NCBI GenBank assembly: GCA_029945665.1
Contig: JAQSCZ010000122.1
Coordinates: forward strand, 1,868-65,867
Source of the DNA: a bacterium
Lineage (GTDB): Bacteria; Bacteroidota; Bacteroidia; NS11-12g; UBA955
Reading direction: 5' to 3'
DNA length: 64,000 nt
The translations under genes were made by a program, and so were the position numbers. The notes under the pieces are model-generated. The model saw nothing but the letters and a program-made list of their open reading frames with translations. It ran no database searches and was not told the origin of the DNA. Of this stretch, positions 4,661-64,000 are shown in pieces (within the stretch, counting starts at the first letter, position 1; each line of letters starts with the position of its first letter).

Positions 4661-4671
4661 GGAAGACTGAA

Positions 4672-6711: not shown

Positions 6712-6992
6712 GTTCATTGGTAAAAAACTTTCAAAATTACCATATACTATGCGATAGCGTAATAATGCCGAGCCAGAATACAATGCTAAAAAATCATGGA
6801 TTGTAAACCCAGCCATCATATTTGGTTTACTGAGAGACGTAAAAAAAGGAAAATAAAATGGTCGAAAAACTAAACCAATAAATTAATACAATTTAGAAGT
6901 AAAACATAAAATATCAAAATGGTATTCGTTCTGATTTTACTATATTTGCGCCAAGTTATTATAGTATAATTGCTTTCTAATCAGTTAAATAA

Positions 6993-7952: not shown

Positions 7953-7965
7953 TTACTTTTGTACA

Positions 7966-8466: not shown

Positions 8467-8482
8467 TTACAATTTAATAATC

Positions 8483-9088: not shown

Positions 9089-9138
9089 GATATATCTAAA
9101 AATAAGAGGGTTTGTCATATTTACTTTGTCTATATAAT

Positions 9139-9175
9139 ATAATTGTATTATAATTGTAAATTATAATACAATTAT
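9139..9175. promoter_or_regulatory. Perfect 16-bp inverted repeat (ATAATTGTATTATAAT-N5-ATTATAATACAATTAT) overlapping the oxyR start codon; candidate operator
   Basis: Read directly from the sequence: the arms are 9139-9154 and 9160-9175, separated by TGTAA. The oxyR ATG is at 9174-9176. LysR-type regulators typically autoregulate via dyad sites. Confidence 0.4.
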
Positions 9176-10112: not shown

Positions 10113-10125
10113 ATTGAGATTTTCC

Positions 10126-10932: not shown

Positions 10933-10933
10933 A

Positions 10934-12571
10934 TTATTTAATGGTTAAAATGGATAGGTATTGCGCAAGATCATTTAACAAATTTATAGACTTTAAAACA
11001 TCTTTGTCAGAATTAAATGTAGATTCTATGACCGCCTCTTCATAATAATATCGCCTTGCTATTTCTGAACTTAGCATAGTCATAATTTCGACCTTGTTTT
11101 TCTCAAGATCATTCATTTTTATTTTCTTTATACTATTTTCAATTGACTCAATCTCATTTTTAAGAATCGCCAAATTATCTTCTTCTGCAACCTTTTCCTT
11201 AAATAATTTTAAAGCAGTTTCGCTGTTTGTGAAATAGTTAAAGTTTTGTGTGGTAATAAAATTCTTAAAATCAACAAAATCCTTTTCTGATATCTTGAAA
11301 TTACTGATATCTGCAATGGCTTCGTGTTCATTGCGATAGTGAGTTGCAAAATCAAAAATAAGATAATTTTTTTCTAAATTTTTACTCAGATTCGAGAGCT
11401 TACTTTCTGCAACTAACACATCTGGCTTAACGCCTCCTCCGTCATATACAACTCTGCCACTTTTCGTTTTAAAAGCCTTCCTTAAACTATCTGGCACAAT
11501 ACCTGCGCTTCCATCTGGATTCCGATGGCTATAATCAAGCAATTGTATGCAACGATTAGAGGGTATATAGTATTTGGCTATGGTTAATTTCATTTGCGTG
11601 CCGTAAGGCAAACCTTTGGTATTTTGAACTAAACCCTTGCCAAAGGTATTTCTGCCAATAACAACTCCTCTATCAAAGTCCTGAATGGCACCACAAACAA
11701 TTTCACTAGCGCTTGCGGAATGGCTATTAACTAAAACCACCAATGGAATTGTGGCATCTACCACTTGATCTAGGGTTTTATACTCTCTAAAAGCCTCATC
11801 TGCTCTGCCTTTAGTCGTAACAACTATTTGATTAATACCAATAAAAATATTAACAATACTAACTGCCTCATGCAATAAACCACCACCATTATCTCTTAGA
11901 TCGAGCACAATATTTTTCACGCCTCTTTGCTTAAGATTTACTAAAGCATCTTTCACTTCTTTGGCAGCTCCCATCATAAAATGATCTAATTTTATATACC
12001 CTATTTCAGCATTGACCAATCCAAAATAAGAAACATTTTTTAATTTAATATCTTCTCTTGTAATTTCTACTAGTTTTTTAATGCCATCTCGTTCAATTGT
12101 TAGCACTACCTTGGTATTAGGAGATCCTCTTAAGGCATCACTAGATTCTTCTAAACTTTTCCCAACAAAATTCTTTCCATTGACTTCTATCAACTTGTCG
12201 CCAACTCTTAGGCCTGCTTTATCTGCTGCTAGACCTCTATAAACAATATTAATGTATTGATAATCGCCCCGCTTTACACTGCTACAACCAATCCCTCCAT
12301 ATTCCCCACTTCGCATTATCATCGCATCTTCTGCCTGACTTTCAGTGTAAAAATTGGTGTATGGATCTAAAGAGCCCAACATGGCATCAATGCCCTTTTT
12401 CATCAATTCTCCAGGTTTTATATCATCTACATATCCCGTATGAATCTCTTTATATACCCCTCCAAAAATTTCAAGATTTTTACTGACTTCAAAATAATCA
12501 TCTGCTTGCTTAAAAGCAAAAATAAATAGGAGCCCAATTGAAATAATAAATAATTTCCGTTTTGAAAACAT
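10934..12571 (-). CDS. ctp: S41 family C-terminal processing peptidase (Ctp/Prc-like) with PDZ domain
   Basis: PDZ 'GLRVGDKLIEVNG', S41 core 'VLDLRDNGGGLL', and 'SASASEIVCGAIQD...GKGLVQ' with the catalytic Ser/Lys context. Confidence 0.9.
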   Translation of the reverse strand: MFSKRKLFIISIGLLFIFAFKQADDYFEVSKNLEIFGGVYKEIHTGYVDDIKPGELMKKGIDAMLGSLDPYTNFYTESQAEDAMIMRSGEYGGIGCSSVKRGDYQYINIVYRGLAADKAGLRVGDKLIEVNGKNFVGKSLEESSDALRGSPNTKVVLTIERDGIKKLVEITREDIKLKNVSYFGLVNAEIGYIKLDHFMMGAAKEVKDALVNLKQRGVKNIVLDLRDNGGGLLHEAVSIVNIFIGINQIVVTTKGRADEAFREYKTLDQVVDATIPLVVLVNSHSASASEIVCGAIQDFDRGVVIGRNTFGKGLVQNTKGLPYGTQMKLTIAKYYIPSNRCIQLLDYSHRNPDGSAGIVPDSLRKAFKTKSGRVVYDGGGVKPDVLVAESKLSNLSKNLEKNYLIFDFATHYRNEHEAIADISNFKISEKDFVDFKNFITTQNFNYFTNSETALKLFKEKVAEEDNLAILKNEIESIENSIKKIKMNDLEKNKVEIMTMLSSEIARRYYYEEAVIESTFNSDKDVLKSINLLNDLAQYLSILTIK

Positions 12572-12613
12572 TAAACAAATTTAACAACTTTTGGCTGAAA
12601 ATAAGAAAATATT

Positions 12614-13492
12614 TTAGTTGCGGTGATCCATTCCCCAAAGCATTTTATTGCGCAGGGTTTTCAAATAAGTATCGCCTTCAAAACGCACTAAATTGATTGA
12701 AAAATCAGCTTTCTTAATGGCTATTTGAACTTTATTGTCAATTGTCACAGAGCGACTATCCAAACTTGCTAAAAAATAATTACTCCTACCCTCTATTTCA
12801 AAACTCAATACTTGGTCATCTGGAATAATCACTGGACGAACATTGAGGTTATGAGGTGCAATTGGCGTTACAACAATACTTCCTGACTTAGGAAATAAAA
12901 TTGGCCCACCGCAACTTAAAGAATAACCAGATGAGCCAGTAGGAGTGGCTACGATTAAACCATCAGCCCAATATGAATTAAGGGGTTCTCCATTTAAGAA
13001 TGCGTGAACAATGATCATACTACTCGTTTCCTTTTTATGCAGAACGAAATCATTCATGGCGTAATTAAAATCAAACAATTGTTGGTTACTCTCTAATTGT
13101 AAAAGATTCCTTTTGTCAATTAAATAACTCCCGCGCTTTAATTGATTGAAAGCATCCTTTAATCCACTGGTATTAACATTGGCTAAAAACCCAAGTCGAC
13201 CCGTATTTACGCCAATTAAGGGAATGCCACTGTCGGATAAAATCTCAACGGCATCAAGTATGGTGCCATCCCCACCAATGCAGATAAGGTAGTCAATTAA
13301 TTTATTTTTACTAGATAACTTATCAAAAACTTCTTTGGTATTAATATCTAAATTAAAGTTTTTAAATTCCTTAATTAGATGTTCATGATAAAAAACAGTA
13401 ACTCCCTCTGAAATTAGAAACTCAATAATTTCTTGTACCAAATTTAATTGGTTATCTGAATTAATTACTTTTGAATACAGTCCTATTTTCAT
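12614..13492 (-). CDS. nadK: NAD+ kinase
   Basis: 'GGDGTIL' and 'NTGRLGFL' NAD-kinase signatures. 292 aa. Confidence 0.9.
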   Translation of the reverse strand: MKIGLYSKVINSDNQLNLVQEIIEFLISEGVTVFYHEHLIKEFKNFNLDINTKEVFDKLSSKNKLIDYLICIGGDGTILDAVEILSDSGIPLIGVNTGRLGFLANVNTSGLKDAFNQLKRGSYLIDKRNLLQLESNQQLFDFNYAMNDFVLHKKETSSMIIVHAFLNGEPLNSYWADGLIVATPTGSSGYSLSCGGPILFPKSGSIVVTPIAPHNLNVRPVIIPDDQVLSFEIEGRSNYFLASLDSRSVTIDNKVQIAIKKADFSINLVRFEGDTYLKTLRNKMLWGMDHRN

Positions 13493-13561
13493 GTTAGTTA
13501 ATCACAAAGGTAATTGATTTATATTGAGCCTTCAAAATTCCTATAAAGTTGCGAAGGCATA

Positions 13562-14080
13562 TTAAAATTCAAATCTCATCACTTGCGTTTGGAGCTTATT
13601 GCTTTTATGAAGCGCACGGTCGTATAATTGGAAAGTGTAGTACATAGAATCTGGAAATAAGCCAATATACGGAGATGCTTTAAGTAACAACCTAATTTCA
13701 CCACTTATTCCTTTTGATTTGCCCGTAGGTGTTAAATTTACAATCCTTTCATTATAGTTGAGTGTGTCAGCTGGGAAGGAGGGATTTGGAATTTTTGAAG
13801 CTATTCCATTTTCAATTTGAAATATTTCAATAATTAAGTTATTGTAATAAGGGGAGCCCTCATTAAAGGGTGAAATTGTATCTTCGGTATTCAAACCAAT
13901 ATCACCATCGCCATCAACATATGAAACTATAAAATTAACTGCCGAGTCTTTGCCCTTTAGCTTTAATTGTTCTACCAATTTGAACGATATACCAGGAATA
14001 ATAGAATCTTTATTAGCTTCCTGCTTGCAACTTGCAATAAAAATTAAAATGAATATAAATATACTATATTTTTGAGCCAT
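13562..14080 (-). CDS. Small lipoprotein with DGDGDIG motif (paralog of 31319..31783)
   Basis: Signal/lipobox MAQKYSIFIFILIFIASCKQ. Contains 'YVDGDGDIGLNTED' (DNA 13901-13918). Same architecture as the lipoprotein preceding the T9SS adhesin. Confidence 0.5.
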   Translation of the reverse strand: MAQKYSIFIFILIFIASCKQEANKDSIIPGISFKLVEQLKLKGKDSAVNFIVSYVDGDGDIGLNTEDTISPFNEGSPYYNNLIIEIFQIENGIASKIPNPSFPADTLNYNERIVNLTPTGKSKGISGEIRLLLKASPYIGLFPDSMYYTFQLYDRALHKSNKLQTQVMRFEF

Positions 14081-15062
14081 GCTTCTAAATCAGTTAGAAA
14101 AAGCGATTTTTACTGTTACCGATTCACAATTTGAACAGCTTGCACTTGAGGTATTTCGCCATCAAAGCAAACATTGTGAGGTGTTTAAGCAGTATTTGCA
14201 CTTTTTAAAATCTGACATAACAAAGATAAACAAGCTTGAAGAGATTCCCTATTTACCGATAGAATTTTTTAAACATTTTAAAATTACCACAGGGCATTTT
14301 TTACCGGAAATTGTTTTTGAAAGCAGCAGTACGAGTGGAATTGGAATTAGTAAGCACCATGTAAAGTCAACTTCATGGTACCAAACCGCATTTAATAAAA
14401 GTTTTGAATTTAATATACAAAAACCTGAATTATTCTGTCATTTAGCACTACTCCCATCCTACTTAGAGAGAGAGAATTCATCACTCGTTTTTCAAATTAA
14501 TGAATTTATTCAAAAGAGTAATTACAAAGAAAGTGGCTTTTTTTTATACAATCACCAAGAATTAGCAGAACGAATTAGACAAAACGAGGACCATCAAATA
14601 CCCACGATTTTGTGGGGTGTAACCTACGCGCTTATTAACTTTTCAGAAGCTTTCCATTTAGAACTCAAACACACCCAAATTATTGAAACAGGCGGCATGA
14701 AAGGAAAAAGAAAAGAAATTGTTAGAGATGAATTACATGCTTTATTAAAATCTGCATTTCAACTAAACGCCATAGGGGGAGAGTATGGCATGACGGAATT
14801 AATGAGTCAGGCCTATTCATTAAGCAATGGCTTATATCAATGTCCGCCTTGGATGAAGATAACAACCCGTGAAATCAATGACCCATTAACACCCATTAAT
14901 AATTACAAGAATGGGGTATTAAATATTATTGATTTGGCTAATTTAAACAGTTGCGCATTCATTGCAACTTCTGATATTGGAAAAGTGCACCCCAACGGCC
15001 AATTTGAAGTTTTAGGTAGACTCGACAACAGTGATACAAGAGGCTGTAATTTGCTGGTATAA
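14079..15062 (+). CDS. LuxE-like acyl-protein synthetase / adenylate-forming acyltransferase
   Basis: 'FESSSTSGIG' adenylation-type P-loop and 'IETGGMKGKRKE' match the LuxE/PaaK-like family common in Bacteroidetes polysaccharide loci. Confidence 0.5.
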   Translation: MLLNQLEKAIFTVTDSQFEQLALEVFRHQSKHCEVFKQYLHFLKSDITKINKLEEIPYLPIEFFKHFKITTGHFLPEIVFESSSTSGIGISKHHVKSTSWYQTAFNKSFEFNIQKPELFCHLALLPSYLERENSSLVFQINEFIQKSNYKESGFFLYNHQELAERIRQNEDHQIPTILWGVTYALINFSEAFHLELKHTQIIETGGMKGKRKEIVRDELHALLKSAFQLNAIGGEYGMTELMSQAYSLSNGLYQCPPWMKITTREINDPLTPINNYKNGVLNIIDLANLNSCAFIATSDIGKVHPNGQFEVLGRLDNSDTRGCNLLV

Positions 15063-16011
15063 TAAATATTTAAATCCTGCTTTGATAATAATTATTCAAC
15101 AACTAAAGACTTACATTAGCTCTCAAAAGATTGCGCATTGGCTTATACTACTAGTGTTTTGTACGATTAGTGTTTATGTAAATTATGGCTTAGGACTGCA
15201 AGAAAGAATCAATCAATTGAGCGGCTTAAAAGAATATGGAAGCTATGTTGCATTGTATGCTGTTCATTCAATTTTTGCATTTTTAGTCTATAGTATTTTA
15301 TATCAAAAATACGAGTTTTGGAAAGCCCCAGGATTTGTCATTTTATTAGTTTGCAGTTTTTTAATTTTTGCCCTGCGAGCAACCATATCTCAGCACTTTG
15401 ACTTAATTGAAGATTGGTCACGTGAGGGTCAAAAGAGAATCAATCAGTTTGTTTTTAACGATGTTTTTAGATTGCTTTGCATATTTATACCAATTTCACT
15501 CATTTGGTTACTTGTTGACAGAAAAACTATGCCCTTGTATGGTTTAACCCTAAAAAATCACAAGCCCAAGGTGTATTGGATTCTTTTGCTTTGTATGCTG
15601 CCATTAATAGCTGGAGCAAGCTGTTTGAGCGACTTTCTAAGTTATTATCCCAGATTACATATATTACAAAATTACAATCCACCAACCTGGAAATTATGGC
15701 TATTTGAACTATTTTACGGCATGGACTTTTCCTCAATTGAGCTCTTCTTTAGAGGTTTTTTAGTCATTGGTTTTGCTAAATATGTAGGTAGCAACAGCAT
15801 CCTTCCAATGGCTTGTTTCTATTTATCTATCCATTATGGAAAGCCTATGGGTGAGGCTATAAGCTCATTTTTTGGTGGTACAATTTTAGGTGTTATTTCT
15901 TACCATAGTGGTAGTATATTTGGCGGCATAATGGTACACGCTGGAATTGCATGGTTAATGGAAGCTGGTGGCGTTATTGGAAATTATATTAAAACATTAT
16001 GGGTGGATTAA
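15031..16011 (+). CDS. CPBP (CAAX protease) family intramembrane metalloprotease
   Basis: 'ELFFRGFLV' (EExxxR-type motif 1) plus distal His-containing helices. Polytopic. The start is uncertain because it overlaps the previous gene by 32 nt. Confidence 0.55.
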   Translation: MIQEAVICWYNKYLNPALIIIIQQLKTYISSQKIAHWLILLVFCTISVYVNYGLGLQERINQLSGLKEYGSYVALYAVHSIFAFLVYSILYQKYEFWKAPGFVILLVCSFLIFALRATISQHFDLIEDWSREGQKRINQFVFNDVFRLLCIFIPISLIWLLVDRKTMPLYGLTLKNHKPKVYWILLLCMLPLIAGASCLSDFLSYYPRLHILQNYNPPTWKLWLFELFYGMDFSSIELFFRGFLVIGFAKYVGSNSILPMACFYLSIHYGKPMGEAISSFFGGTILGVISYHSGSIFGGIMVHAGIAWLMEAGGVIGNYIKTLWVD

Positions 16012-31783: not shown

Positions 31784-34700
31784 TTGAATACTTTTTTCAA
31801 ATATCGTACATTATTGGGTGCTTTTTTAGATAACAAGATAGCGCTTTTTCTGCTGTCATTACTAAGTATACTACCGACATATTTAGCAGCACAAACTACT
31901 TATAAAATGAGTAACAATAAGGTTTATGACTGCAGAGGAAAGTTAATTGATAGCGAGGGTAATAAAGTAAATACAAGCTGGTATGCCAGCAATGAGGATT
32001 TTATATTCACAATTTCTGTGAGTGGTGCCAGTAAAATTAATATCAAATTTACAAATCCATTCAATGTCGAAGCAGGCTCAGATTTTTTAAAGGTATACAG
32101 TGGTAAGGATACTTTTTCAGGATTCATAAAAAAGTATGATAACAACAACAAACCTTCAGGTACTATTTCTGTAACAGATAGTTGTATCACATTTTATTTT
32201 CATTCTGATAAATATGTCAATGGCGATGGATTTGAACTCAGCTGGGAAGCAAAAATAACTTCCGTTCCTCAGCCAAAATTTACACCCATTACTAATCCTA
32301 ATTGCAACACTAATAAAATTCGCATTATACTTGATCAAAAATTTAATTGCGACTCAGTGAAGGCAAAAAATTTTAAATTATCAGGCACCTTAACAACTGC
32401 CGTGAGCAATGCCGTTGGCGTTGGGTGTGATGGTAAAAATGAAAGCAATACTTTTGACATTTCATTTGCTTCAGCCTTAAATCAAAGTGGTAATTATGTA
32501 CTTGATTTTAATTCTACTTTCAAAGATCAATGTGATAGTATTTGGAAAATAAACGCAAAATTAAATTTCAAAATTACAGATTGCCCCATCAAGGTGGTAC
32601 TTAAAAGTACAAAAGATACCCTCTGCACAGGTGCATGTGCAACACTTACAGCAACAATAACAGGTGGAAATTCAGCAAACTACACTTACACTTGGTTTAG
32701 CGGCACCTTAACGGGCAAACCACCTCATATTATTTGCCCGACTATTAACACAAGATACATTTTGGAAGTTTCGGATGGCGTGTCTATACCCGGGCGTGAC
32801 ACGATAGATATTATTGTTTTGACACCTCCTGTTGCGCAAAATGACACAACGGTTTGTCAATCGAGTGGACCATTTAATTTAATGGCCAATCCCACCGGTG
32901 GCAAATGGTCGGGCACTGGAATCACAAATGCAAGCAATGGAACTTTTAATCCATCTATTTCTGGCAGCGGTATTTTTAATATTACTTACCAAAATGGAAA
33001 ATGTAGTGATATTGTTGTTGTTACCGTTAAAGCAATAAATGCAGGACCACCAAATGCCGCATGCCCAAGCAGTGCAGCCTTTATGGTTAGTAATTTTTCA
33101 CCAACAGGAGGTACTTGGAGTGGACCCAATATTAATGCTTTAGGAATTATTACACCTCCTGCCAGTATAGGAACTTTTCAAGTAACATACACATGGAATG
33201 GTTGTACGGCCAAAAAAGACATCAATATAGATGGTATAAGTATAAAAAAATACGATACAATTTGTAAATCTGTTCCTTATGATACAATTTTATTTACACC
33301 TGCAGGCGGAAATTGGACTGGCCCAGGAATTTCTAATACACGATTAGGGATTAGTATACCTTACAATGCTGGTGCTGGAAATAAACTATATATATACACC
33401 ATTAATGGTTGTAAAGACACGCTTAAAAGATTCATTAAAGATGTTGATGCAAGATGGGATGAAATTGCTTGTCCAGATGCCGGACAAAGAACCTTGCCCG
33501 CTGGTATACCTACTGGTGGATTATGGTCTGGTAAAGGTATTTTCGATCCTGTCAATGGGATTTTTGATGCAGATAGTTTTCGGGTACCCGGTCAAAGCAC
33601 TTTTGTTCAAGTTAATTTAACCTATACAACCTTATCAGGCTGCAAAGACGATAAGATTATGTACCTGCGATACTCCCGCTTTTATAAAGATACTGTCAAA
33701 AATTGTGTCACGGATACGAGTTATTATTTGCGCTATCAATATGTTTTTAATGACCCTTGGAATTTGCTTTTTACTGGCAGTAATGCTATAATTGGCAATT
33801 CAATTTACTACCAAAAATTTAGTCCATCACTTGCTGGGAGAGGTACATATCATCAAATAATTGGAGATGGCAATGGCTGCAAAGACACAATTATAATTCA
33901 AATTTATCCAAGAGCCAAAATCCAAAATGATACTATTTTATGTATAGCAGATAATCCTTATCAGTTATACAATGCCGAAAAGAAAGGAACTTTTTCAGGC
34001 AAAGGCATAACAAATGGTGTTACGGGTATCTTTAATCCAGCTTTGGCAGGTTCAGGCACACATTTAATCATGTATAATCAGCCAGGTAAATGTCAAGATA
34101 CAATAAGGATTAAGGTCAATGCATTACCCATTGTGAAAATCAATGGATTGTCGCAATTCTATTGCTTTAGGGATACTATTATAACTGCTAATTTAACCCC
34201 TATAGGTGGCATATTTACTGGAGCAGGCACGAATGGAAATACATTTAATCCTAGAACTGCGGGCACCGGAATCCACAGAATGAAGTATGTTTTTGGAACA
34301 GGAAAGTGTATCAATCAAGATGTTTTAGATATTGAAATAGGAGATACTTTAAAACTAGACTTAATTAGCGATAAAGATACCATATGTATTGGGACAACAG
34401 TAACTTTAAATACCAAAGCTACAGGTGGCAGCAATAATTATGATTTAACTTGGAGCAGTGGACCAACCAATGTCAGTGCTATTTTCATTTCACCTAAAAA
34501 AACCACATTGTACACTGCAACGTTAAAAGATGGTTGTAGTGACTCTGTAGTTAAGCAAAAGTTAATATATGTGCATCCCCAAATGTATAGTAGCAGCAGT
34601 ACTAGTCCAATTCAATGCTATGGTAATCAAGGTTTCATAAATCTAAAAATGAATGGAACTGGTCCTTTTTCATATCTTTGGAATACGATTCCACCACAAA

Positions 34701-35344
34701 CCAATGCTATAATAAATGCCCCTGTCAATAATACTTACAAAGCAACCATAACCAATACTTCCACTGGTTGTAAATATGATACAAGTCTGCAAATTCCCGG
34801 ATACAACGCGATAAGAGCCTATTTTACTTTCTCTCCAAATGACAGATGTTTATACAGTAACAATGCTGAATTGCAGATTATTAATCTAAGTGATGGCGGC
34901 ATAACCGGAACCTGGGATTTTGGAGATGGCACAATTATTCCTTATGATCCAGCTACCAATCCAAGTCACTTATACGACGGATTAAAAGAAAATTATAAAG
35001 TAAAACTAACGATATCTAATAGTGGTAATTGTATTGATAGTTTTTATGTTAATATCTGTGTAATTGATACCGTTACTATCATATTGCCTACAGCATTTAC
35101 CCCAAATGATGACGAGATGAATGATATTTTTAGAATTGAATCCACTTCTATTTCTAAATCGACAATGGCTATTTTTAATAGATGGGGTGAAAAAGTATTT
35201 TACAGTGAAGATTCAAAAATTGGGTGGAATGGAACCTACCAAGGGAAACCATGCCCTACAGACTATTATGTTTATTATATTAGCTATAAAGGAAAAAAAA
35301 CTGCAACACGTTACACAAAAGGTGTCTTGTTTTTAATACGGTGA
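31784..35344 (+). CDS. Giant T9SS type-B CTD (gliding-motility-associated C-terminal domain) cell-surface protein with N-terminal CUB-like domain, ~9 Cys-bracketed Ig-like repeats and a PKD domain
   Basis: Signal peptide. CUB-like domain 'CRGKLIDSEG...SGFIKKYDNN...GDGFELSWEA' (~31930-32260). Repeats of the form C-x(8-12)-P-x-GG-x-W[ST]G-x-GI-x(15-30)-C. PKD domain 'GTWDFGDGTIIPYDPATNPSHLY'. C-terminal 'LPTAFTPNDDEMNDIFRI...IFNRWGEKVFYSED...GWNGTYQGK' is the type-B/CHU_C sorting domain. Confidence 0.8.
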   Translation: MNTFFKYRTLLGAFLDNKIALFLLSLLSILPTYLAAQTTYKMSNNKVYDCRGKLIDSEGNKVNTSWYASNEDFIFTISVSGASKINIKFTNPFNVEAGSDFLKVYSGKDTFSGFIKKYDNNNKPSGTISVTDSCITFYFHSDKYVNGDGFELSWEAKITSVPQPKFTPITNPNCNTNKIRIILDQKFNCDSVKAKNFKLSGTLTTAVSNAVGVGCDGKNESNTFDISFASALNQSGNYVLDFNSTFKDQCDSIWKINAKLNFKITDCPIKVVLKSTKDTLCTGACATLTATITGGNSANYTYTWFSGTLTGKPPHIICPTINTRYILEVSDGVSIPGRDTIDIIVLTPPVAQNDTTVCQSSGPFNLMANPTGGKWSGTGITNASNGTFNPSISGSGIFNITYQNGKCSDIVVVTVKAINAGPPNAACPSSAAFMVSNFSPTGGTWSGPNINALGIITPPASIGTFQVTYTWNGCTAKKDINIDGISIKKYDTICKSVPYDTILFTPAGGNWTGPGISNTRLGISIPYNAGAGNKLYIYTINGCKDTLKRFIKDVDARWDEIACPDAGQRTLPAGIPTGGLWSGKGIFDPVNGIFDADSFRVPGQSTFVQVNLTYTTLSGCKDDKIMYLRYSRFYKDTVKNCVTDTSYYLRYQYVFNDPWNLLFTGSNAIIGNSIYYQKFSPSLAGRGTYHQIIGDGNGCKDTIIIQIYPRAKIQNDTILCIADNPYQLYNAEKKGTFSGKGITNGVTGIFNPALAGSGTHLIMYNQPGKCQDTIRIKVNALPIVKINGLSQFYCFRDTIITANLTPIGGIFTGAGTNGNTFNPRTAGTGIHRMKYVFGTGKCINQDVLDIEIGDTLKLDLISDKDTICIGTTVTLNTKATGGSNNYDLTWSSGPTNVSAIFISPKKTTLYTATLKDGCSDSVVKQKLIYVHPQMYSSSSTSPIQCYGNQGFINLKMNGTGPFSYLWNTIPPQTNAIINAPVNNTYKATITNTSTGCKYDTSLQIPGYNAIRAYFTFSPNDRCLYSNNAELQIINLSDGGITGTWDFGDGTIIPYDPATNPSHLYDGLKENYKVKLTISNSGNCIDSFYVNICVIDTVTIILPTAFTPNDDEMNDIFRIESTSISKSTMAIFNRWGEKVFYSEDSKIGWNGTYQGKPCPTDYYVYYISYKGKKTATRYTKGVLFLIR

Positions 35345-40755: not shown

Positions 40756-41418
40756 TTAATCCTTTAAGAGATGGCTAAAAGACTTTCTAAGTTTACTAAC
40801 CTTTGGATCGATAACAGCTGTGCAGTAACTATTTTCTAGTCTGTTTTGGTTGTAATAATCTTGGTGATAATCTTCGGCATTATAATAAATTCCAAGCGGT
40901 TGAACTTCTGTAACAATTGGATTCTCAAATATTTTTTCTTCTGTTAATTTTTTTATGAATGCTTCTGCACTGTCTTTTTGTTGTGGACTATTGTAAAATA
41001 TAGCTGAGCGATATTGTGTACCTATATCATGGCCTTGTCTATTCAAGGTCGTTGGATCGTGCATGGTAAAAAATACAGTTAGTAAAGTATTGTAATCCAC
41101 GATGTCTGGATTGTAGATAATCTGAACAGCTTCGGCATGGCCTGTAAAACCAGTACAAATTTCCTTATAAGTAGGATCTTTTGTTTTACCTCCAGTATAT
41201 CCGCTAATAACAGTATCAACGCCCTTCAATCTGGCCATCGTTGTTTCAATGCACCAAAAACAGCCGCCTGCAAATGTGGCTGTATCCCTTTTTAAATTAC
41301 TATCATTCATATTTGTTCTATTGCTAACATTATTTGCTTTATTATTGTTTGTTTTGGCATTACAGGCCATTAAACAAAAAACCAAAAATAGGGATAGTGG
41401 CCATTGTAACTTTTTCAT
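40756..41418 (-). CDS. msrA: Peptide-methionine (S)-S-oxide reductase MsrA with N-terminal lipoprotein signal
   Basis: 'GGCFWCIE' active site. N-terminus 'MKKLQWPLSLFLVFCLMACNAK' (lipobox), so it is predicted to be extracytoplasmic. Confidence 0.85.
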   Translation of the reverse strand: MKKLQWPLSLFLVFCLMACNAKTNNNKANNVSNRTNMNDSNLKRDTATFAGGCFWCIETTMARLKGVDTVISGYTGGKTKDPTYKEICTGFTGHAEAVQIIYNPDIVDYNTLLTVFFTMHDPTTLNRQGHDIGTQYRSAIFYNSPQQKDSAEAFIKKLTEEKIFENPIVTEVQPLGIYYNAEDYHQDYYNQNRLENSYCTAVIDPKVSKLRKSFSHLLKD

Positions 41419-41456
41419 CTTTTATTTTAAACAGTATTGAATTACTTTTGTACTTT

Positions 41457-43883
41457 ATGTTAAAACAAAAATATTACTTATTGTTAATTATCAGTTCACT
41501 ATTATTGTTCAGTTGCAGCAAATTCACGACTAAACTTTCGGAAGATGAAAAAGAAGGACACCCAGGATATCAAGAACAATTGCTTTTTATTAAAACCAAC
41601 GGCACGAATGTAATGCCGGATTTATCACATTATAATTGGGTGCCAAATTCAATAAAGAGATCCACCTCAGGGGCATTACTTAATTTATCAGAACTAGGTC
41701 CTAATAACGTTGGTGGCAGAACCCGCGGAATGATTACAGACATTAGCAATCCAAATAGAATTGTTGCAGGTGGGGCATCCGGTGGTGTATTTGTATCTGA
41801 TAACAAAGGATCCAGTTGGCGTGCGATCAACGACCAACAATTAAATCCAAGTGTCACCGGAATGGACCAAAATCCATTTCTTCCCAATGTTATATACTAC
41901 TGTACAGGCGAAGGCAGTGGAAACAGTGCTGATATATTAGGTGCGGGTATATTTAAATCTACCGATGGTGGTAATACTTTTTCGCAACTAAGTGCTACCA
42001 ATAATACCAATTTTAATGTTTGTTGGAGTATAAAATGCTCCCCAAAAGACACCAATGTGTTATATGTTTCGACAGGAAGAGCAGGTGTTTGGCGTAGTGA
42101 TGATGCAGGCAGTACTTTTACAAAGGTATTTGCCTCTACTATTGAAATTAATGACCTTGAAGTATTGCCAAATGGCAGTGTTTTATTTGCTGTTAAAGGT
42201 GGTGGGGTTTATAGATCTTCAAATGGCGACTTAGGCACATTTACTAAAATAAATTCAATTAACTCCGCTTCAACAGCGCGAGGTGAACTAGCCTATTGCA
42301 AAGAATACCCAAATGTTGTTTATGCCGCAATTTCAGGCGTCGACAATGGTTACTCGGGTGTTTTAAATCAGTTTTATAAATCAAGTGACAGTGGTAAAAC
42401 TTTTACCCCCAGAAATAATCCTAACGGCATAGTTAAATTTAGTTTTACATGGTATTGTTTAACCATGTCTGTCAAATCAGATGATAGCAATAGTATTTTC
42501 ATTGCTTCTTTAGATGCTGGTTATAGTAGAAATGGAGGCAATAGTTGGAACAAGGCTAATATCATTCACTCCGACCACCATGCCGCACAAAATATGAATG
42601 ATTCAGAATTATTGGTTGGCAGTGATGGAGGTATCTGTATTTATAAATGGAACGATTTTTCAAAATTTAAGTCTTTAAACAATGGCTATAATGTAACACA
42701 ATTTTATTCTGGTGCTGTATCACCTTTTAGCAATAATATCATGGGAGGTTGCCAAGACAATGGCACTAACGAAAGCACTGGAAATGACAGCGCATTTAAT
42801 AATATCTTTGGAGGGGATGGAGCTTACACATTCTATCACAATGCATTGGAAGACACAAAATACTTATCCTATCAAAATGGTGTTGTCATAAGACGAGAAG
42901 GTTTAGTTGATAATAATATTAGTAATAAACTTCCCTCGGGCAGCACGGGCATTTGGTTCATTCAGCCCTATGATGTAAGTGAATATAACAGCGATTGGGT
43001 GATTTATCCAGCAGGTTTAAATTTATTAATTAGCAACAATAGCGGCAATAATTTCACCAAGCTAGGAAATATATCAAATGGAAAATTATTCGCATCTAAT
43101 TCTTCCTATGATGGCAACCCCGCTGTATATGCTGGCGGTAGTAATTGCCTTATGGGATTTGACTCTATGCTTAATACATCTCCAAAATTAATCAACTACT
43201 TATCAAAACTTCCAAATGCAATAAAGAGTTCATTTTGTAACAGTATAAAGGTCATTCCAGGTTACCGAGACCGTGTTTATTTGGCCTATAGTAATATCAA
43301 TGATTCTGGTAGATTATACAAAGGCTTTGATATGCTTTCGGGTAACCCAAAATTCAAAAATATTAGTGGAAATTTACCAAAAGGCTTACCAGTAAATTGG
43401 GTGGAATGCGACCCTGTAAATCCTGAAAGAGTAATATTTGCTGGCACTGACTTTGGATTATACGTGAGTGAAGACAGTGGTACAACTTGGATTAAAGATA
43501 CCAGAATACCTAATGTGGTAGTAAGCAGTATCAAAGTAAGTGTCAATAAAAAAGATATTTATTTCTTTACCCATGGCCGTGGTGTTTTCAAGGCTACTAT
43601 TAAAAATAATTACAATGTTGGTTTAAATAAAACAAACTCAACTGCAAGATTATTTCAAATATTCCCAGTACCTGCTTCGAATCTGCTAAATATTGAGCTC
43701 AATTCAAACCTTAAAGATGCTAACTTCAGTATTTATACAATGCTGGGTGAAATCGTAGCAAAAGGGGAATTAGTGTCAGGTATTAATAGCGTTGATATTG
43801 ATGAATTAAAAAGTGGTAATTATATTATTCTTATAGAAAAGGACGGGAAATCAGAAAGCACTGCATTCAATGTAAATAAGTAA
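41457..43883 (+). CDS. BNR/Asp-box repeat (sialidase/GH74/sortilin-like beta-propeller) protein with T9SS type-A C-terminal sorting domain
   Basis: ATG at 41457 gives MLKQKYYLLLIISSLLLFSCSK. Six or more Asp-box motifs (SDNKGSSW, STDGGNTF, SDDAGSTF, SDSGKTF, SRNGGNSW, SEDSGTTW). C-terminal 'IFPVPASNLLNIE...SIYTMLGEIV...SGNYIILIE' is a type-A CTD. Confidence 0.7.
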   Translation: MLKQKYYLLLIISSLLLFSCSKFTTKLSEDEKEGHPGYQEQLLFIKTNGTNVMPDLSHYNWVPNSIKRSTSGALLNLSELGPNNVGGRTRGMITDISNPNRIVAGGASGGVFVSDNKGSSWRAINDQQLNPSVTGMDQNPFLPNVIYYCTGEGSGNSADILGAGIFKSTDGGNTFSQLSATNNTNFNVCWSIKCSPKDTNVLYVSTGRAGVWRSDDAGSTFTKVFASTIEINDLEVLPNGSVLFAVKGGGVYRSSNGDLGTFTKINSINSASTARGELAYCKEYPNVVYAAISGVDNGYSGVLNQFYKSSDSGKTFTPRNNPNGIVKFSFTWYCLTMSVKSDDSNSIFIASLDAGYSRNGGNSWNKANIIHSDHHAAQNMNDSELLVGSDGGICIYKWNDFSKFKSLNNGYNVTQFYSGAVSPFSNNIMGGCQDNGTNESTGNDSAFNNIFGGDGAYTFYHNALEDTKYLSYQNGVVIRREGLVDNNISNKLPSGSTGIWFIQPYDVSEYNSDWVIYPAGLNLLISNNSGNNFTKLGNISNGKLFASNSSYDGNPAVYAGGSNCLMGFDSMLNTSPKLINYLSKLPNAIKSSFCNSIKVIPGYRDRVYLAYSNINDSGRLYKGFDMLSGNPKFKNISGNLPKGLPVNWVECDPVNPERVIFAGTDFGLYVSEDSGTTWIKDTRIPNVVVSSIKVSVNKKDIYFFTHGRGVFKATIKNNYNVGLNKTNSTARLFQIFPVPASNLLNIELNSNLKDANFSIYTMLGEIVAKGELVSGINSVDIDELKSGNYIILIEKDGKSESTAFNVNK

Positions 43884-52879: not shown

Positions 52880-54295
52880 TTACCACTTAACCTTATACCC
52901 TTTTTTAACTCGCACACCAGTATAGGGCAATACACACCTAAAACCTAATAATGGCAAGGCTTTACTCTGTTCTAGTTGTGATACCTTGTGAGTGGTATTT
53001 TTATAATTGGAGGCTAAGTATTTGCGTTTCATATTGGTATTATCGCTTACAAACCTACTGGCCCATTTTTCATTTAATGAATCTTTGGTAATCATTTCAG
53101 GATAAATACCTTGGCTATTCAAATATACTTTGAAATTATTTTTATAAAATTGGGCATATTGCGTAAAATGCTTGTAATAAACCTTTTTCAAAATACTATC
53201 CATATACTTTTCTTTTTGATGATAAAAGGGATTTGGAAAAAAGACTTTGTATAATTGATAATCAAACAATCTTGGATTTGTTAGGTATATTGGTTCATTA
53301 AGAGCCGATACTTGAACGAATCTATATTTTAAACGCCCAATACTGTCTTTTTCTTCTATCTAGCCATATTGATCTAATGGATTTGAATACATAAAACTAT
53401 ACCATCCATTGATTAGCAAAACATCGTATTCCGCTATCCCTGTGCCTTGCCGATAGTTTTCTAAATCGAGCAGCCATTCTGAAACACCACTGTAAAAATT
53501 GAAACCTATTTTTTCGAAATTAGAAGATTGTTTAGTTTTATACGAATTTACAAGTTGATAATAAAGCATCCATTTATCAAGAAAATCAGATTGATTGAGG
53601 GAGTTCGTAATAGTTTTTGAGTTTTGTAAATCATTAGTGTAGGAGGCTGCCAAATTCCATTCTGCTTCTGTTGGCAGGCGGTATTGCGGAAAAAGTATAC
53701 CATCCTCTACTTTTACATATTCTTTAGATTTTTGTTCTCTACCTTTAATAAAATTATTAAAATTATTTCCTTTTTCAGGCAAATAAACTTCATTCAAATA
53801 GGACTCGGTATTAAAATTATGATCATCAGTTGTTTTACTCATATCAATATTAATAATTTCAGTTTTATCTAAAATCATTTCATTTAGGCGGTCTGTTTTC
53901 CATTCCAAATAAGATTTAACTTGAAACCATGTTACACCAGTAACAGGATACCACATAAAGGCTGGATGGTTGTTGTAATCTTGAATCATAGGGTCGTTAT
54001 ATTGCAACCATAAACCGCCTACTGTATCTTTGGGATAGGCCTGCTTATAAACCTCCGGATAGCTTTGGAAAACATTTTTTAACCACAGGATATAGGTTTT
54101 ATAATGAATATTGGATTCTTCGGTAACGCTTATGTAATAAGGCAACAAAGTATCGGATTGAACCAGCACCATACCTTGTGGCGCAGTTTGAGTTAATTGT
54201 TCATTGAAAGTAGTATGAAGATTTGTTGAACTTTGTAATAAAAACCAAAACCCTACCAAAGAAACTAGCATGCCAAATAAAATTGTCCTTTTCAT
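52880..54295 (-). pseudogene. SUMF1/FGE-sulfatase family (GldJ/GldK-like) secreted protein interrupted by a single in-frame TAG
   Basis: Two track ORFs (53360..54295 and 52880..53269) lie in the same frame, separated only by a TAG at 53360-53362. Reading through gives ...PLDQYG*IEEKDSIGRLKYRF... The N-terminal part has the FGE motif 'YRLPTEAEWNLAAS' and the C-terminal part ends in 'LGFRCVLPY'. Confidence 0.6.
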
Positions 54296-59024: not shown

Positions 59025-59252
59025 CAGAGTGTTGGAAGTGTTCCGCTAATTTTATTTATCTAGAATTAGCACAATTGTAATAAAACTGTCATAATACCAA
59101 GACAGTACAACCTTTTTAGTTTGGGGTGGTCTAATCTTAAAACTAAAACCTTTAAAACCATGTTTATTTATCGTTACCTTCGGAACTCTTACAATTACTT
59201 TAAAAAATTAATCATACTTTTGAGGAACATTAATTATTAATGTGCTCATCAT

Positions 59253-60803
59253 ATGAAGAAAATTTTAATGATCGCTCTCTTTGCTATAGCAATGCAAACA
59301 AGAGCACAAAAACCAACTTGGGCAGAAGATGTTGCATGCATTGTATACAGCCACTGCACTAGTTGTCACAACCCCAATGGCTCAGGTCCATTTTCTCTAT
59401 TAGATTTTAATGATGCCGTTAACCGAAGCAACAGCATTAAATTTCAGGTGAGTAACAAAACTATGCCGCCTTGGCCAGTCGATAATCATTATCGAAAAAT
59501 GGCACACGAGAGAAGTTTATCTGATGTGGAAGTGAATACCATTTTAGCCTGGATAAACAATGGCATGACCCAAGGTAATATGGCCAATGCCCCTACTCCA
59601 CCGGTGTATTCATCGGCATTGGTAATTGCCAATCCTGATCTAAAATTAAAACTACCAACTTATACCGTTCCTACCATCACACAAGATTTATATAGATGCT
59701 TTGTAATGCCTACAGGCCAATCTATTCAAAAGTTCATTACAGGAATTGAAATAATTCCTGGAAACAAAAGCATCGTTCACCATGCACAAGTATTTTACGA
59801 TACCACTGGTGCAACAACGACTTTAGATGCCAATGACCCAAATCCTGGTTATTCTTCGGCTGGAGGAGTAGGTACGGATGCCGCAGTATTATTGGGCACT
59901 TGGGTGCCAGGTGCTAGTCCTATTTTCGTGCCTGCTGGCATGGGTAAGCGCTTGCCCCCCACAGCAAAAATAGTGGTTCAAATTCATTACCCTGAATATG
60001 CAAGCGGGCAAACAGATTCAACAAAAGTGAATTTTCTGTTTACCTCAAGTAGCGTTAGAAATATTAGCGATGCGCCTATTTTAAACCATTCAACTACCAT
60101 GAAGGATGGGCCATTATTTATTCCAAAAAATACTGTTAAAACCTTTCATGAAGAATTTTTTGTGCCACTTAACGCCACCATTTTAAGCATTGGACCGCAT
60201 GGTCACTTACTCTGTAAAAGTATGAAAGCCTATGGCATTACTTTAGCTGGCGACACCATCAAATTGATAAATATTCCAAAATGGGATTTTCATTGGCAAG
60301 GTTCTTATGATTTTAAACAACCCATTAAAATTCCAATAGGTACGACACTACATGGCGAAGCTACATACGATAACACGGCTGCAAATTCAGAAAACCCAAA
60401 TGACCCACCTCAAGATGTAAGCTTAGGCGAAGCTACAACAGATGAAATGATGTTGTTTTATTTCTCTTATTTAGCCTATAAATCGGGTGATGAAAATATT
60501 GTAGTGGACACCTTTCAACATCAACCACACCATAACAATTGCACTAGTGCATATAACACCTCTATTAGTACTCTAGACATTTCAAGTGATTTAGTGTATC
60601 CGAATCCTAGTAATGGTTTATTTCATTTAAAAGTGCAAAACAATAACGCATTTGAGATAATTGTTTATAACCATTTGGGTCAAAAAGTATGGAATGGCAA
60701 AAATACCACTGAGATAGATTTATCAGCGTTTGGAAATGGTATTTACAATGTAAGTATCATTCAAAACAATAATATTTACAATAGCAAGTTAGTAAAGGAA
60801 TAA
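59253..60803 (+). CDS. Secreted c-type heme (CXXCH) + copper type II ascorbate-dependent monooxygenase-like (PHM/DBH fold) protein with T9SS type-A CTD
   Basis: Signal 'AMQTRAQ'. 'CIVYSHCTSCHNPNGSGPF' is a PSCyt1-like CXXCH (59355-59369). CuH-like H176/H177/H245 ('VHHAQVFY', 'QIHYPEY'). CuM-like 'GPHGHLLC' plus 'TTDEMMLFYFSY'. C-terminal 'VYPNPSNGLFHL...IIVYNHLGQKV...NGIYNVSII'. Confidence 0.6.
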   Translation: MKKILMIALFAIAMQTRAQKPTWAEDVACIVYSHCTSCHNPNGSGPFSLLDFNDAVNRSNSIKFQVSNKTMPPWPVDNHYRKMAHERSLSDVEVNTILAWINNGMTQGNMANAPTPPVYSSALVIANPDLKLKLPTYTVPTITQDLYRCFVMPTGQSIQKFITGIEIIPGNKSIVHHAQVFYDTTGATTTLDANDPNPGYSSAGGVGTDAAVLLGTWVPGASPIFVPAGMGKRLPPTAKIVVQIHYPEYASGQTDSTKVNFLFTSSSVRNISDAPILNHSTTMKDGPLFIPKNTVKTFHEEFFVPLNATILSIGPHGHLLCKSMKAYGITLAGDTIKLINIPKWDFHWQGSYDFKQPIKIPIGTTLHGEATYDNTAANSENPNDPPQDVSLGEATTDEMMLFYFSYLAYKSGDENIVVDTFQHQPHHNNCTSAYNTSISTLDISSDLVYPNPSNGLFHLKVQNNNAFEIIVYNHLGQKVWNGKNTTEIDLSAFGNGIYNVSIIQNNNIYNSKLVKE

Positions 60804-60815
60804 AGTCCTTATTAA

Positions 60816-61643
60816 ATGAAGCTTATTCTTAATTTTTGTTTGTTTATTGTAGTCAGTGCCTGTGTACCAAACACCGAACAAAAAACAGCATTAGTTGCGA
60901 AGCAAGCAGTTCCCACTTTATTAAATGTTAAGATAGATTATACCCATCGGGTCATCCACATTTTTGTAGCTTTATGTGATAATCAATACCAAGGCATTGT
61001 GCCAGTTCCACCTAAGATTGGAAATGGTAGAGATTTAAATAATAACTTGTATTGGGGCTGTGGTTTTGGTATTAGAAGTTACTTTAAAAAAAGTAAGGAA
61101 TGGAAATTACTAAGACGTTATGCAATCGATTCCATCAAACTTGAAAGACTTGTTTTTAAGCACACAAGTAAGCACTACTATTTAGTTGCCGACGCATATA
61201 ATGGCAAATATATTGAGACTTGTACAAAGGATTTCTTAAACAGTGTTGCAGGTATTGAAAAAGACACACTACATATTGACAATAAAACCATTGGTATTAA
61301 AGGCTATTCAAAACTATCGGCCTATATAGGACATGATGGCTTAATGGATTTTAACTTGGTAGACAACTATCAAAATACTGATAAAAAACAAAGAGACTGC
61401 ATTATTTTAGCCTGTATTAGTAAAGGCTATTTTTCAAATTACATTAAAAATGCAAATGCAAATCCACTTGTTTGGACCACTGGATTGATGTGCCCTGAAG
61501 CATACACTATTCACGATGCTTTAACTGGATATGTACTAAATGAGAGTAGCGAAGCAATTAGAAATAGAGCCGCTCTTGCCTATTCTACACATCAAAAATG
61601 CAGTTTAAAAGCTGCTCGCCATTTATTGGTTACAGGCTTTTAG
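60816..61643 (+). CDS. Hypothetical lipoprotein
   Basis: Lipobox 'FIVVSACVPN'. Starts 13 nt after the monooxygenase-like gene. No recognised family. Confidence 0.4.
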   Translation: MKLILNFCLFIVVSACVPNTEQKTALVAKQAVPTLLNVKIDYTHRVIHIFVALCDNQYQGIVPVPPKIGNGRDLNNNLYWGCGFGIRSYFKKSKEWKLLRRYAIDSIKLERLVFKHTSKHYYLVADAYNGKYIETCTKDFLNSVAGIEKDTLHIDNKTIGIKGYSKLSAYIGHDGLMDFNLVDNYQNTDKKQRDCIILACISKGYFSNYIKNANANPLVWTTGLMCPEAYTIHDALTGYVLNESSEAIRNRAALAYSTHQKCSLKAARHLLVTGF

Positions 61644-63022: not shown

Positions 63023-64000
63023 TTAGTGTTGCACTTCTAATTTTATATTAGCCTCTGCCCCATTTGAAATTATTTTCACCATATAAATACCATTGGCCAA
63101 ATTCCCAATAAATAAAGGCTGATTTTCTCCTTGATATTGCAAAACAACTCTACCTGAAAGATCTGTTATCTTCAATTCAATTGGTGTATTAAAAGCACTT
63201 ATAACATGCACATATTCCGCACTTGGATTTGGATAAATTTTAAATACTTCAGACTGCTGAATGGCTGAGAGATTTGTAAAATCCTTGGTAACAATTACTG
63301 TATCGTTGCTATTGCAAGCCCCATTGACAATGAGCCTTACAGTCTTGTTATTAGCATTAACATATTGATGAACAGGATTTTTAAGTGTGCTGCTATCACC
63401 ATCACCAAAATACCATTTGTAAGTCATATTACTACCTGTTGAAGTATTGTTAAATCCAACGATATTGCTGCCAATATAACCATAGGTAAAGTTCGCCTTA
63501 ACAAAAGTATCAGCTGAAACCGTTGCAGTATTTGAAATGGTATAAGTTTGTGCTTGTCCACCTGTTACTGTAATTGCCAATGTGGCCCCTTTAACCCCTG
63601 ATGAATTATAGCTTACTTTATGAGGCCCAGCAGTGTTAGCAGTGGCAGGCGTTCCACCTGTAAAAGTCCATTGTCTAGTCGCAACATTTACATCACTTGA
63701 ATCGGTGTAGGTAACAGTTTGACCAATACAAACTTGTTTTGGATTGTTGTAAAAATTAAGATAGGCGAATTTGATACTTTTAATAGTGTCCTCGGTGTTA
63801 CAAGTATTGGTTGAAATTAATCTGACATTATAAGTCCCGCCCGCCGCATAATTATGTAAAGGACTTGCAATCAATGCTGAATCTAAATCACCAAAGTACC
63901 ATTTGTCGGATGTAGAATTATTGGATGTATTCGTAAAAGTTACTTTGCCCTTTTCGGCTGCAACCCAAGTAAAATTAGGTTTCATTTTTGAATCAGATTT
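63023..64000 (-). CDS. PKD-domain protein with T9SS type-A CTD, 5'-truncated by window end
   Basis: PKD 'WYFGDGDSSTLKNPVHQY'. CTD 'FKIYPNPSAEYVHV...ITDLSGRVV...NGIYMVKII'. On the minus strand the frame stays open through 64000 (KSDSK before the first in-window Met), so the true start lies outside the window. Confidence 0.7.
   Translation of the reverse strand, partial: KSDSKMKPNFTWVAAEKGKVTFTNTSNNSTSDKWYFGDLDSALIASPLHNYAAGGTYNVRLISTNTCNTEDTIKSIKFAYLNFYNNPKQVCIGQTVTYTDSSDVNVATRQWTFTGGTPATANTAGPHKVSYNSSGVKGATLAITVTGGQAQTYTISNTATVSADTFVKANFTYGYIGSNIVGFNNTSTGSNMTYKWYFGDGDSSTLKNPVHQYVNANNKTVRLIVNGACNSNDTVIVTKDFTNLSAIQQSEVFKIYPNPSAEYVHVISAFNTPIELKITDLSGRVVLQYQGENQPLFIGNLANGIYMVKIISNGAEANIKLEVQH

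Follow-up and report, generated by a model that had tools for sequence, protein, structure and literature searches.

A stretch of 64,000 nucleotides from a member of the Bacteroidota (assembly GCA_029945665.1, contig JAQSCZ010000122.1, positions 1,868–65,867 of the forward strand; hereafter referred to as the window) contains a gene whose product combines a predicted heme c domain with a copper core of the type found in peptidylglycine α-hydroxylating monooxygenase (PHM) and dopamine β-hydroxylase (DBH), followed by a C-terminal sorting domain (CTD) that belongs to type IX secretion (the T9SS). Animals use this copper core to make noradrenaline and amidated peptide hormones. We propose, with a probability of about 0.6, that the product of the gene is an extracellular redox enzyme, complete in itself, in which heme c would deliver electrons to the CuH site and, through it, to the CuM site, where activation of O2 would lead to hydroxylation of a C–H bond. 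Our comparisons show that the copper core of the window protein is homologous to PHM and DBH, with its ligand residues in one-to-one correspondence to theirs. The core represents a known kind of enzyme; what is new is its obligatory fusion to a c-type cytochrome, its predicted export through the T9SS, and its bacterial setting. An earlier note on this DNA, made from its letters, had named a CXXCH motif, an HH...H pattern (176/177/245), and an HxH...M pattern (316/318/399–400, DEMM) as landmarks of the protein. All of these are present as described: CTSCH (residues 35–39), H176/H177 (VHH), H245 (IHY), H316/H318 (PHGH), and M399/M400 (TTDEMM).

The copper core is homologous to PHM and DBH

When the window protein was searched singly against Pfam, one of the two copper monooxygenase families anticipated in the earlier note was detected at the very limit of its cut-off and the other was missed. 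Cu2_monoox_C (PF03712) scored 23.0 bits over residues 309–410 (cut-off 23), whereas Cu2_monooxygen (PF01082) scored 20.8 bits over residues 131–247, below its cut-off of 30. Both families are nevertheless evident in relatives of the protein. Among 34 homologues that are 44–83% identical to the query, 33 matched Cu2_monooxygen (E ≤ 0.01; best E 1.7e-9) and 31 matched Cu2_monoox_C (E ≤ 0.01; best E 6.1e-10).

A family profile built from these 34 homologues (alignment A1) was compared with the sequences of proteins in the PDB. The best match outside the CTD was human DBH (4zel; E 8.4e-6, residues 130–375), and entries for rat PHM (1opm/1yjk) matched with an E value of ~2e-5 over a region covering approximately residues 129–375. 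In the HMMER alignments, the family sequence ivHHvlvf lies on TVHHMLLF of PHM and LVHHMEVF of DBH, while PHaHL lies on VHTHH of PHM, which contains His242 and His244. Table 1 lists the resulting assignments; the CuH and CuM ligand sets of PHM that were mapped are those described previously (PMC6123673). The profile of the CuM domain by itself found no matches among PDB sequences, so the correspondence between Met399 and Met314 of PHM rests on an hhalign comparison of the CuM-domain alignment with a PHM fragment; this comparison placed TTDEMM on SSDEMC (E 6.2e-5). Met399 is invariant and Met400 varies (M/F/L/C), which makes Met399 the candidate ligand. Tyr147 and Gln243 of the window protein aligned to Tyr79 and Gln170, which lie near CuH in PHM, and both residues are invariant in the 34 homologues.

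The structure of the window protein predicted by AlphaFold2 from alignment A1 (mean pLDDT 84.1, pTM 0.67) contains two β-sandwiches between residues ~130 and 410. When compared with the PDB by Foldseek, the first 31 matches to this model were all PHM or DBH (E 1.2e-13 to 1.1e-10), with 289–366 aligned columns, TM-scores of 0.55–0.67 (normalized to PHM), and sequence identities of 15–18%. If all profile matches outside the CTD are added to these 31, every solved structure that strongly matches the core is PHM or DBH. The PHM-like ligand spacing and β-sandwich fold put forward in the earlier note are thus borne out: the His and Met ligands are kept in homologues and align to the true ligands of PHM and DBH, and the predicted structure shows the double sandwich of these enzymes.

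Much weaker Foldseek matches beyond the first 31 were to the T9SS CTD of NucA (8glk_D) and to PNGase F (1pgs; E 2.6e-4). The latter is about nine orders of magnitude worse than the matches to PHM and DBH, and membership of the window protein in the PNGase F family was rejected. Membership in the lytic polysaccharide monooxygenases (LPMOs) was rejected as well; the only LPMO in the Foldseek list (8gul_A) had an E value of 3.3e-4 and a TM-score of ~0.1, and the fold is that of PHM/DBH. Moreover, the predicted mature N-terminus of the protein is Gln19 and not the His of the LPMO histidine brace.

The window protein shares with PHM (1PHM, 1OPM, 1SDW, 3MIH) the core of two β-sandwiches, the CuH and CuM ligand sets, the equivalents of Tyr79 and Gln170, and a secretory route of export; the ligand set is also shared with DBH, tyramine β-monooxygenase, and MOXD (4ZEL). 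The carboxylate of peptidyl-glycine is held in PHM by a clamp composed of Arg240, Tyr318, and Asn316. Arg240 aligns to Gly314, a position that is variable in the family (A/F/T/S/G/M), and Asn316 aligns to Leu401 (L/I/V), whereas Tyr318 aligns to Tyr403 (Y/F). Since neither Arg240 nor Asn316 is conserved, we rejected orthology to PHM. The PAL partner domain of PHM is not present in the window protein. PHM obtains its electrons from soluble ascorbate (PMC6123673), whereas the window protein is bacterial, appears from its sequence to be secreted by the T9SS, and carries a covalently fused heme c domain. In DBH, the accessory domain N-terminal to the same core is a DOMON domain (PMC12164859); its place is taken here by a c-type cytochrome, and the dimerization domain of DBH is absent.

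Ten residues are proposed as metal ligands: C35, C38, H39, M71, H176, H177, H245, H316, H318, and M399. All ten are invariant in the 34 homologues. A wider alignment of 151 sequences, which comprises the query and the 150 best representatives of clusters formed at 50% identity (31–70% identical to the query), contains 122 sequences with the complete set. The 29 exceptions consist of 22 truncated fragments, 2 sequences with a single substitution, and 5 sequences that lack the copper ligands and retain the heme motif. The CuH ligands H176, H177, and H245 are present in at least 145 of the 151 sequences, and the six copper ligands together with the heme motif are nearly universal down to ~34% identity, which places the motif pattern far beyond chance. 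The five sequences without copper ligands (P0212, P0224, P0242, P0247, and P0259) are full-length proteins that keep the heme motif and the Met of the MPP motif, most of their copper ligands having been replaced (e.g., YS..L/W/Q/Q). Within the family, these proteins could represent pseudo-enzymes or cytochromes that have taken on another role.

Table 1. Features of the gene and its predicted product (positions in the window)
Feature	Position	Strand	Basis or remark
Possible Bacteroidota-type -7 promoter element, TACTTTTG	59215..59222	+	fits TAnnTTTG, 31 nt 5' of ATG; low confidence
Complete ORF, 516 aa + stop, ATG start	59253..60803	+	predicted signal peptide, cytochrome c domain, PHM/DBH-like two-copper core, T9SS CTD
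Predicted Sec signal peptide, residues 1–18, MKKILMIALFAIAMQTRA	59253..59306	+	hydrophobic N-terminus, likewise hydrophobic in homologues; cleavage predicted
Predicted mono-heme c-type cytochrome domain, residues ~19–115	59307..59597	+	weak Pfam matches; relatives above cut-off
Heme c attachment motif C35-T-S-C38-H39 (two thioether Cys and proximal His)	59355..59369	+	invariant in 34 homologues
Met71, part of the invariant MPP(W) motif and candidate for the distal heme ligand	59463..59465	+	conservation
N-terminal β-sandwich (CuH domain), residues ~125–270	59625..60062	+	Pfam, profile to DBH/PHM, Foldseek
His176-His177	59778..59783	+	aligned to PHM CuH ligands His107-His108
His245	59985..59987	+	aligned to PHM CuH ligand His172 (LQIHY vs PHM LQVHY)
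C-terminal β-sandwich (CuM domain), residues ~275–420	60075..60512	+	Pfam, Foldseek, hhalign
His316-Gly-His318	60198..60206	+	aligned to PHM CuM ligands His242/His244
Met399 (TTDEMM)	60447..60449	+	aligned to PHM CuM ligand Met314 (SSDEMC)
T9SS type-A C-terminal sorting domain, residues 448–516	60594..60800	+	PF18962, TIGR04183

Predicted heme c domain and export signals

The region preceding the copper core contains the sequence elements of a mono-heme c-type cytochrome. Within the alignment of 151 sequences, CXXCH is present in 138–139 of the 139 sequences that cover the region, and Met71 is kept in all 146 sequences that cover its position as well as in all 34 close homologues; His85 is not invariant among the latter. 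Two relatives, P0136 and P0221, pass the Pfam cut-off for Cytochrome_CBB3 (34–37 bits; cut-off 27). An hhalign comparison of the domain alignment with Pseudomonas cytochrome c551 gave a P value of 0.006 over 62 columns that extend from CXXCH to the C-terminal helix. The AlphaFold2 model places helices at residues 23–34, 52–67, and 91–102, among which one can recognize the N-terminal helix that is expected to lead into CXXCH and the expected C-terminal helix. Judged by these sequence features, it is very likely that the window protein binds heme c and likely that Met71 serves as the sixth ligand of the heme.

In every non-truncated representative, the copper core is immediately preceded by the cytochrome domain, and the same pairing recurs in proteins with a redoxin–cytochrome c–PHM-like architecture. 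This fixed arrangement argues for functional coupling between the two parts. Cys29 (59337–59339) and Cys430 (60540–60542, + strand), the latter located in the linker, are both invariant in the 34 close homologues and, within the family, only in the clade of the query. Across the 151 sequences, both cysteines are found in 31, neither in 94, and a mixed state in 26. This co-variation suggests a possible clade-specific disulfide by which the C-terminal end of the copper core would be linked to the cytochrome domain.

Both ends of the protein carry predicted export signals. The residue that follows the predicted signal peptide, Gln19, is conserved in 90% or more of the 34 homologues and immediately precedes a conserved PTW motif. 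Its assignment as the mature N-terminus fits the Bacteroidota "Q-rule," by which substrates of signal peptidase I begin with Gln after cleavage. The closest public homologue, MDI1235658.1 (P0001/P0270), is 99% identical to the window protein and is annotated with a length of 503 amino acids, 13 residues shorter. A protein of this length begins at Met14 of the window ORF and would lack the signal peptide; a 516-amino acid version exists in another source (P0271). The shorter annotation looks like a miscalled start site that would hide the export of the protein.

At the opposite end, the type-A CTD described in the earlier note is supported by two curated models, both of which scored above their cut-offs. 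Por_Secre_tail (PF18962) matched residues 448–514 (E 1.4e-10; 41.7 bits, cut-off 27), and TIGR04183 (T9SS type A sorting domain), the sole NCBIfam match, scored 40 bits (cut-off 23; E 2.8e-10). The family profile also matches the CTD of NucA as present in a T9SS translocon complex (8glk_D). The domain is carried by 113 of 129 near-full-length representatives, some of which have Ig or PKD spacers ahead of it.

Three other ORFs in the window bear T9SS sorting domains, and their products are predicted T9SS cargo: an 1186-amino acid protein that has a CUB domain and a sorting domain of type B (CHU_C) (31784–35344, +), an 849-amino acid Sortilin/BNR-like protein with Por_Secre_tail (41334–43883, +), and a 320-amino acid PKD-repeat protein with Por_Secre_tail (63023–63985, −). 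The presence of these ORFs suggests that the host uses the T9SS, and secretion of the window protein is predicted. No genes for the T9SS machinery were identified within the 64-kb window. The window also encodes a 311-amino acid exported protein with an FGE-sulfatase (SUMF1-like) domain (53360–54295, −; E 1.3e-8); this fold is also used by the T9SS and gliding components GldJ and GldK/PorK. The limited full-text collection that we searched contained no paper on a c-type cytochrome as T9SS cargo.

Proposed electron path and its alternatives

From the features described above, we infer that the window protein binds heme and copper, in which direction electrons flow, that it acts as an oxygenase, and where it finally resides. 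The protein would be exported by the Sec pathway, after which heme would become covalently attached in the periplasm at C35, C38, and H39, and Met71 would probably supply the sixth ligand. Copper loading would follow heme attachment, and the folded holoprotein would then cross the outer membrane through the T9SS by means of its type-A CTD. The catalytic core would function as a non-coupled two-copper monooxygenase of the PHM/DBH type, with CuH bound by H176, H177, and H245 and CuM by H316, H318, and M399. The His/Met-ligated cytochrome c domain is envisioned to accept single electrons from an external donor and to pass them to CuH, which would relay them to CuM; the latter would bind O2 and hydroxylate a C–H bond of a substrate other than peptidyl-glycine.

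The heme is placed at the point of one-electron entry because the CuH domain is always immediately preceded by the heme domain. The two coppers of PHM are ~11 Å apart, and each accepts a single electron from ascorbate (PMC6123673). The fused heme of the window protein probably takes the place of ascorbate (vitamin C) as the source of electrons. The prediction in the earlier note that the enzyme is fed with electrons by its own heme is a reasonable one. That such an arrangement is workable is indicated by CjX183 of Cbp2D from Cellvibrio japonicus, a small secreted c-type cytochrome that reduces and activates a bacterial LPMO (PMC8981238). In CjX183, as in the cytochrome domain of fungal cellobiose dehydrogenase, an extracellular heme domain feeds single electrons to a copper oxygenase and thereby replaces a small-molecule reductant. 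These systems differ from the window protein in that the cytochrome does not share a polypeptide with the copper enzyme and in that copper is held by a mononuclear histidine brace; the window protein unites both parts in one chain, and its copper enzyme is of the two-copper PHM type. The likeness lies in the mode of action and not in family membership. An enzyme that carries its own electron-entry module also fits with the lack of a conserved operon partner, which is described in the last section.

Several results weigh against this proposal. The cytochrome domain of the window protein scores below the relevant Pfam cut-offs: the Cytochrom_C match (residues 33–103) reaches 17.7 bits (cut-off 21.3), and the scores for Cytochrome_CBB3 and Haem_bd are weak and likewise under their cut-offs. 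A profile of the domain found PDB sequences with an E value of ~0.5 at best, and an AlphaFold2 model of the isolated domain (pLDDT 76) had no Foldseek match at E ≤ 0.001. The heme c-binding domain that the earlier note placed ahead of the core is therefore upheld by sequence, through the invariant CXXCH and Met71, and not by a structural match to a known fold. Data on metal content, spectra, or activity of any family member were not found in the literature searched. We see no obvious extracellular reductant of the heme, and none of the genes that flank its relatives at 80 loci is a conserved redox partner. The substrate cannot be deduced from that of PHM because Arg240 and Asn316 are not conserved. 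Finally, some relatives have an N-terminal AhpC/TSA redoxin domain and no CTD, a hint that thiols or peroxide may take part in supplying electrons or even in the reaction itself.

The redoxin fusions bear on another explanation, in which the heme–copper module acts as an oxidase or generator of reactive oxygen species that produces extracellular superoxide or H2O2 for attack on polymers or for antagonism, or acts as a peroxygenase with H2O2 as co-substrate, a mode of action that is open to LPMOs. Such an enzyme would contain the same set of cofactors, so that the evidence from fold and ligands applies equally to it; the peroxiredoxin-like AhpC/TSA fusions would link the module to peroxide or thiol chemistry; and the residues of PHM that recognize its substrate are not retained. 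The choice of electron donor can change the yield of H2O2, as observed when reduction of the LPMO by CjX183 resulted in less H2O2 from O2 than did reduction by ascorbate (PMC8981238). The CuM Met and the equivalents of Tyr79 and Gln170 are, however, strictly conserved, which suggests that a catalytic cycle of the PHM type is retained, and we regard an oxidase or peroxygenase as rather unlikely.

Electrons could also flow in the reverse direction, from a metal ion, phenol, or amine that is oxidized by the copper core to the heme, or the heme could serve in sensing or docking. The computed results leave the direction unfixed, given that a six-coordinate heme with His/Met ligands can donate or accept electrons. 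However, a protein exported by the T9SS has no obvious acceptor beyond the heme except O2, the complete His2Met set of CuM constitutes an O2-activating site in every characterized member of the family, and the heme domain, which invariably precedes the CuH domain, is placed as expected for entry of electrons at CuH; these considerations render reversed flow distinctly improbable. A non-catalytic protein, in which the β-sandwiches form a binding or adhesin module or bind and store copper at the surface and CXXCH is incidental or structural, is highly improbable: the fold superfamily has non-redox members such as the weakly matching PNGase F, many T9SS cargo proteins are adhesins, and five representative clusters persist after loss of their copper ligands, but conservation of copper ligands and heme motif to ~34% identity exceeds what binding alone would maintain, and the PNGase F match is the far weaker one. 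The alternatives are less well supported than passage of electrons from heme c through CuH to CuM because the full ligand set of PHM and its second-shell residues are conserved.

An evenly balanced proposition is that bacteria hold a very large, unstudied family of ascorbate-independent copper monooxygenases of the PHM/DBH type, in which a covalently fused c-type cytochrome feeds CuH and which, in Bacteroidota, reach the cell surface or the medium through the T9SS and would there hydroxylate C–H bonds of an abundant extracellular substrate, for instance a peptide, an amine, or a polymer. The solved structures that match the core and the studies that we found all concern eukaryotic, ascorbate-dependent PHM, DBH, and tyramine β-monooxygenase. 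If this proposition is correct, the family would be a bacterial counterpart of a catalytic core that has so far been characterized only in eukaryotic enzymes, and c-type cytochromes would join the kinds of protein known as T9SS cargo. Electron entry at CuH and its crossing of ~11 Å to CuM have long been debated, and the protein would represent a naturally occurring enzyme of the PHM type that contains its own spectroscopic probe, a defined one-electron donor whose state could be followed optically to measure intramolecular electron transfer. The fusion would also supply a bacterial, probably easily expressed scaffold for C–H hydroxylation and a new class of extracellular oxidative enzyme, alongside LPMOs, in Bacteroidota that are abundant in the environment.

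Family distribution and gene neighborhood

The family is large. A word-index search returned more than 2,447 relatives, the best 120 of which are 44–99% identical to the query and almost all ~500–540 amino acids in length; matches to PF01082 or PF03712 had already been precomputed for many of these 120. In an exhaustive HMMER search with residues 20–440, clusters formed at 50% identity numbered 12,126 when the limit was E ≤ 1e-3, 6,825 when it was E ≤ 1e-10, and 2,400 when it was E ≤ 1e-30. In a set with one genome per species, relatives were confirmed in at least 523 of 599 stretches that matched the pattern. Taxa and neighboring genes were analyzed for the best 80 related loci. Nearly all of these are labeled Bacteroidota (Chitinophagales/Chitinophagaceae, Saprospiraceae, and Flavobacteriales) and derive mostly from metagenome-assembled genomes; a cultured carrier among them is Flavipsychrobacter stenotrophus RB1R16. 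The names given to family members in the sources are "T9SS type A sorting domain-containing protein," "mono/diheme cytochrome c family protein," and "hypothetical protein," and one JGI entry lists the names of the Pfam domains. Because the family is large yet its members are named only generically, its substrate represents a sizeable blind spot of annotation. No paper on a bacterial fusion of cytochrome c to a PHM/DBH core was found in the limited full-text collection searched.

The gene is a stand-alone unit, since no neighbor is conserved. As the earlier note had described, a lipoprotein and an M28 peptidase follow the gene. The downstream ORF of 275 amino acids (60816–61643, +) has a lipobox (VVSAC), and the ORF after it encodes the M28 peptidase (E 1.6e-37). 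The predicted lipoprotein has no Pfam or NCBIfam match. It is probably co-transcribed with the gene, because it starts 12 nt past the stop codon. Among the 80 loci, the lipoprotein recurs only in L002 and is absent from L001, the homologue of which is 82% identical to the window protein; it is a recently gained or lost neighbor and no conserved partner. The M28 peptidase, TrmB, and an E1 dehydrogenase recur only in L001 and L002. All-versus-all clustering of flanking ORFs identified nothing common to more than 14 of the 80 loci. Judged by eye from their sequences, the commonest neighbors (13–14 loci each) appear to be housekeeping genes, RecJ-like and deaminase-like. We therefore rejected conserved neighbors as functional partners; neither the lipoprotein nor the M28 peptidase is conserved across the 80 loci. 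Upstream of the gene, TACTTTTG resembles TAnnTTTG, the -7 promoter consensus of Bacteroidota. This match may well be a chance occurrence in an AT-rich spacer.

The redoxin–cytochrome c–PHM-like proteins (P0221, P0264, P0268, P0269, and those of L081) contain a module homologous to that of the window protein, including CXXCH, VHH, HxH, and (D/E)EM. They differ in the presence of an N-terminal redoxin domain of the thioredoxin fold, in the lack of a T9SS CTD, and in that the module can be amplified in tandem. The absence of the CTD indicates that they are probably periplasmic. No published study of these proteins was found in the literature searched. At L081 (GCA_054033915.1, JBPNMT010000094.1; positions 4171–15188), four AhpC/TSA redoxin–cytochrome c–PHM-like modules are distributed over three adjacent genes: one encodes a protein of 1251 amino acids with two tandem modules and is followed by two unrelated genes, after which come genes for proteins of 674 and 626 amino acids. 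All copies of the module at this locus keep CXXCH, VHH, HMH, and (D/E)EM and are without a T9SS CTD, and a PSCyt1/PSCyt2/PSD1 protein adjoins them.

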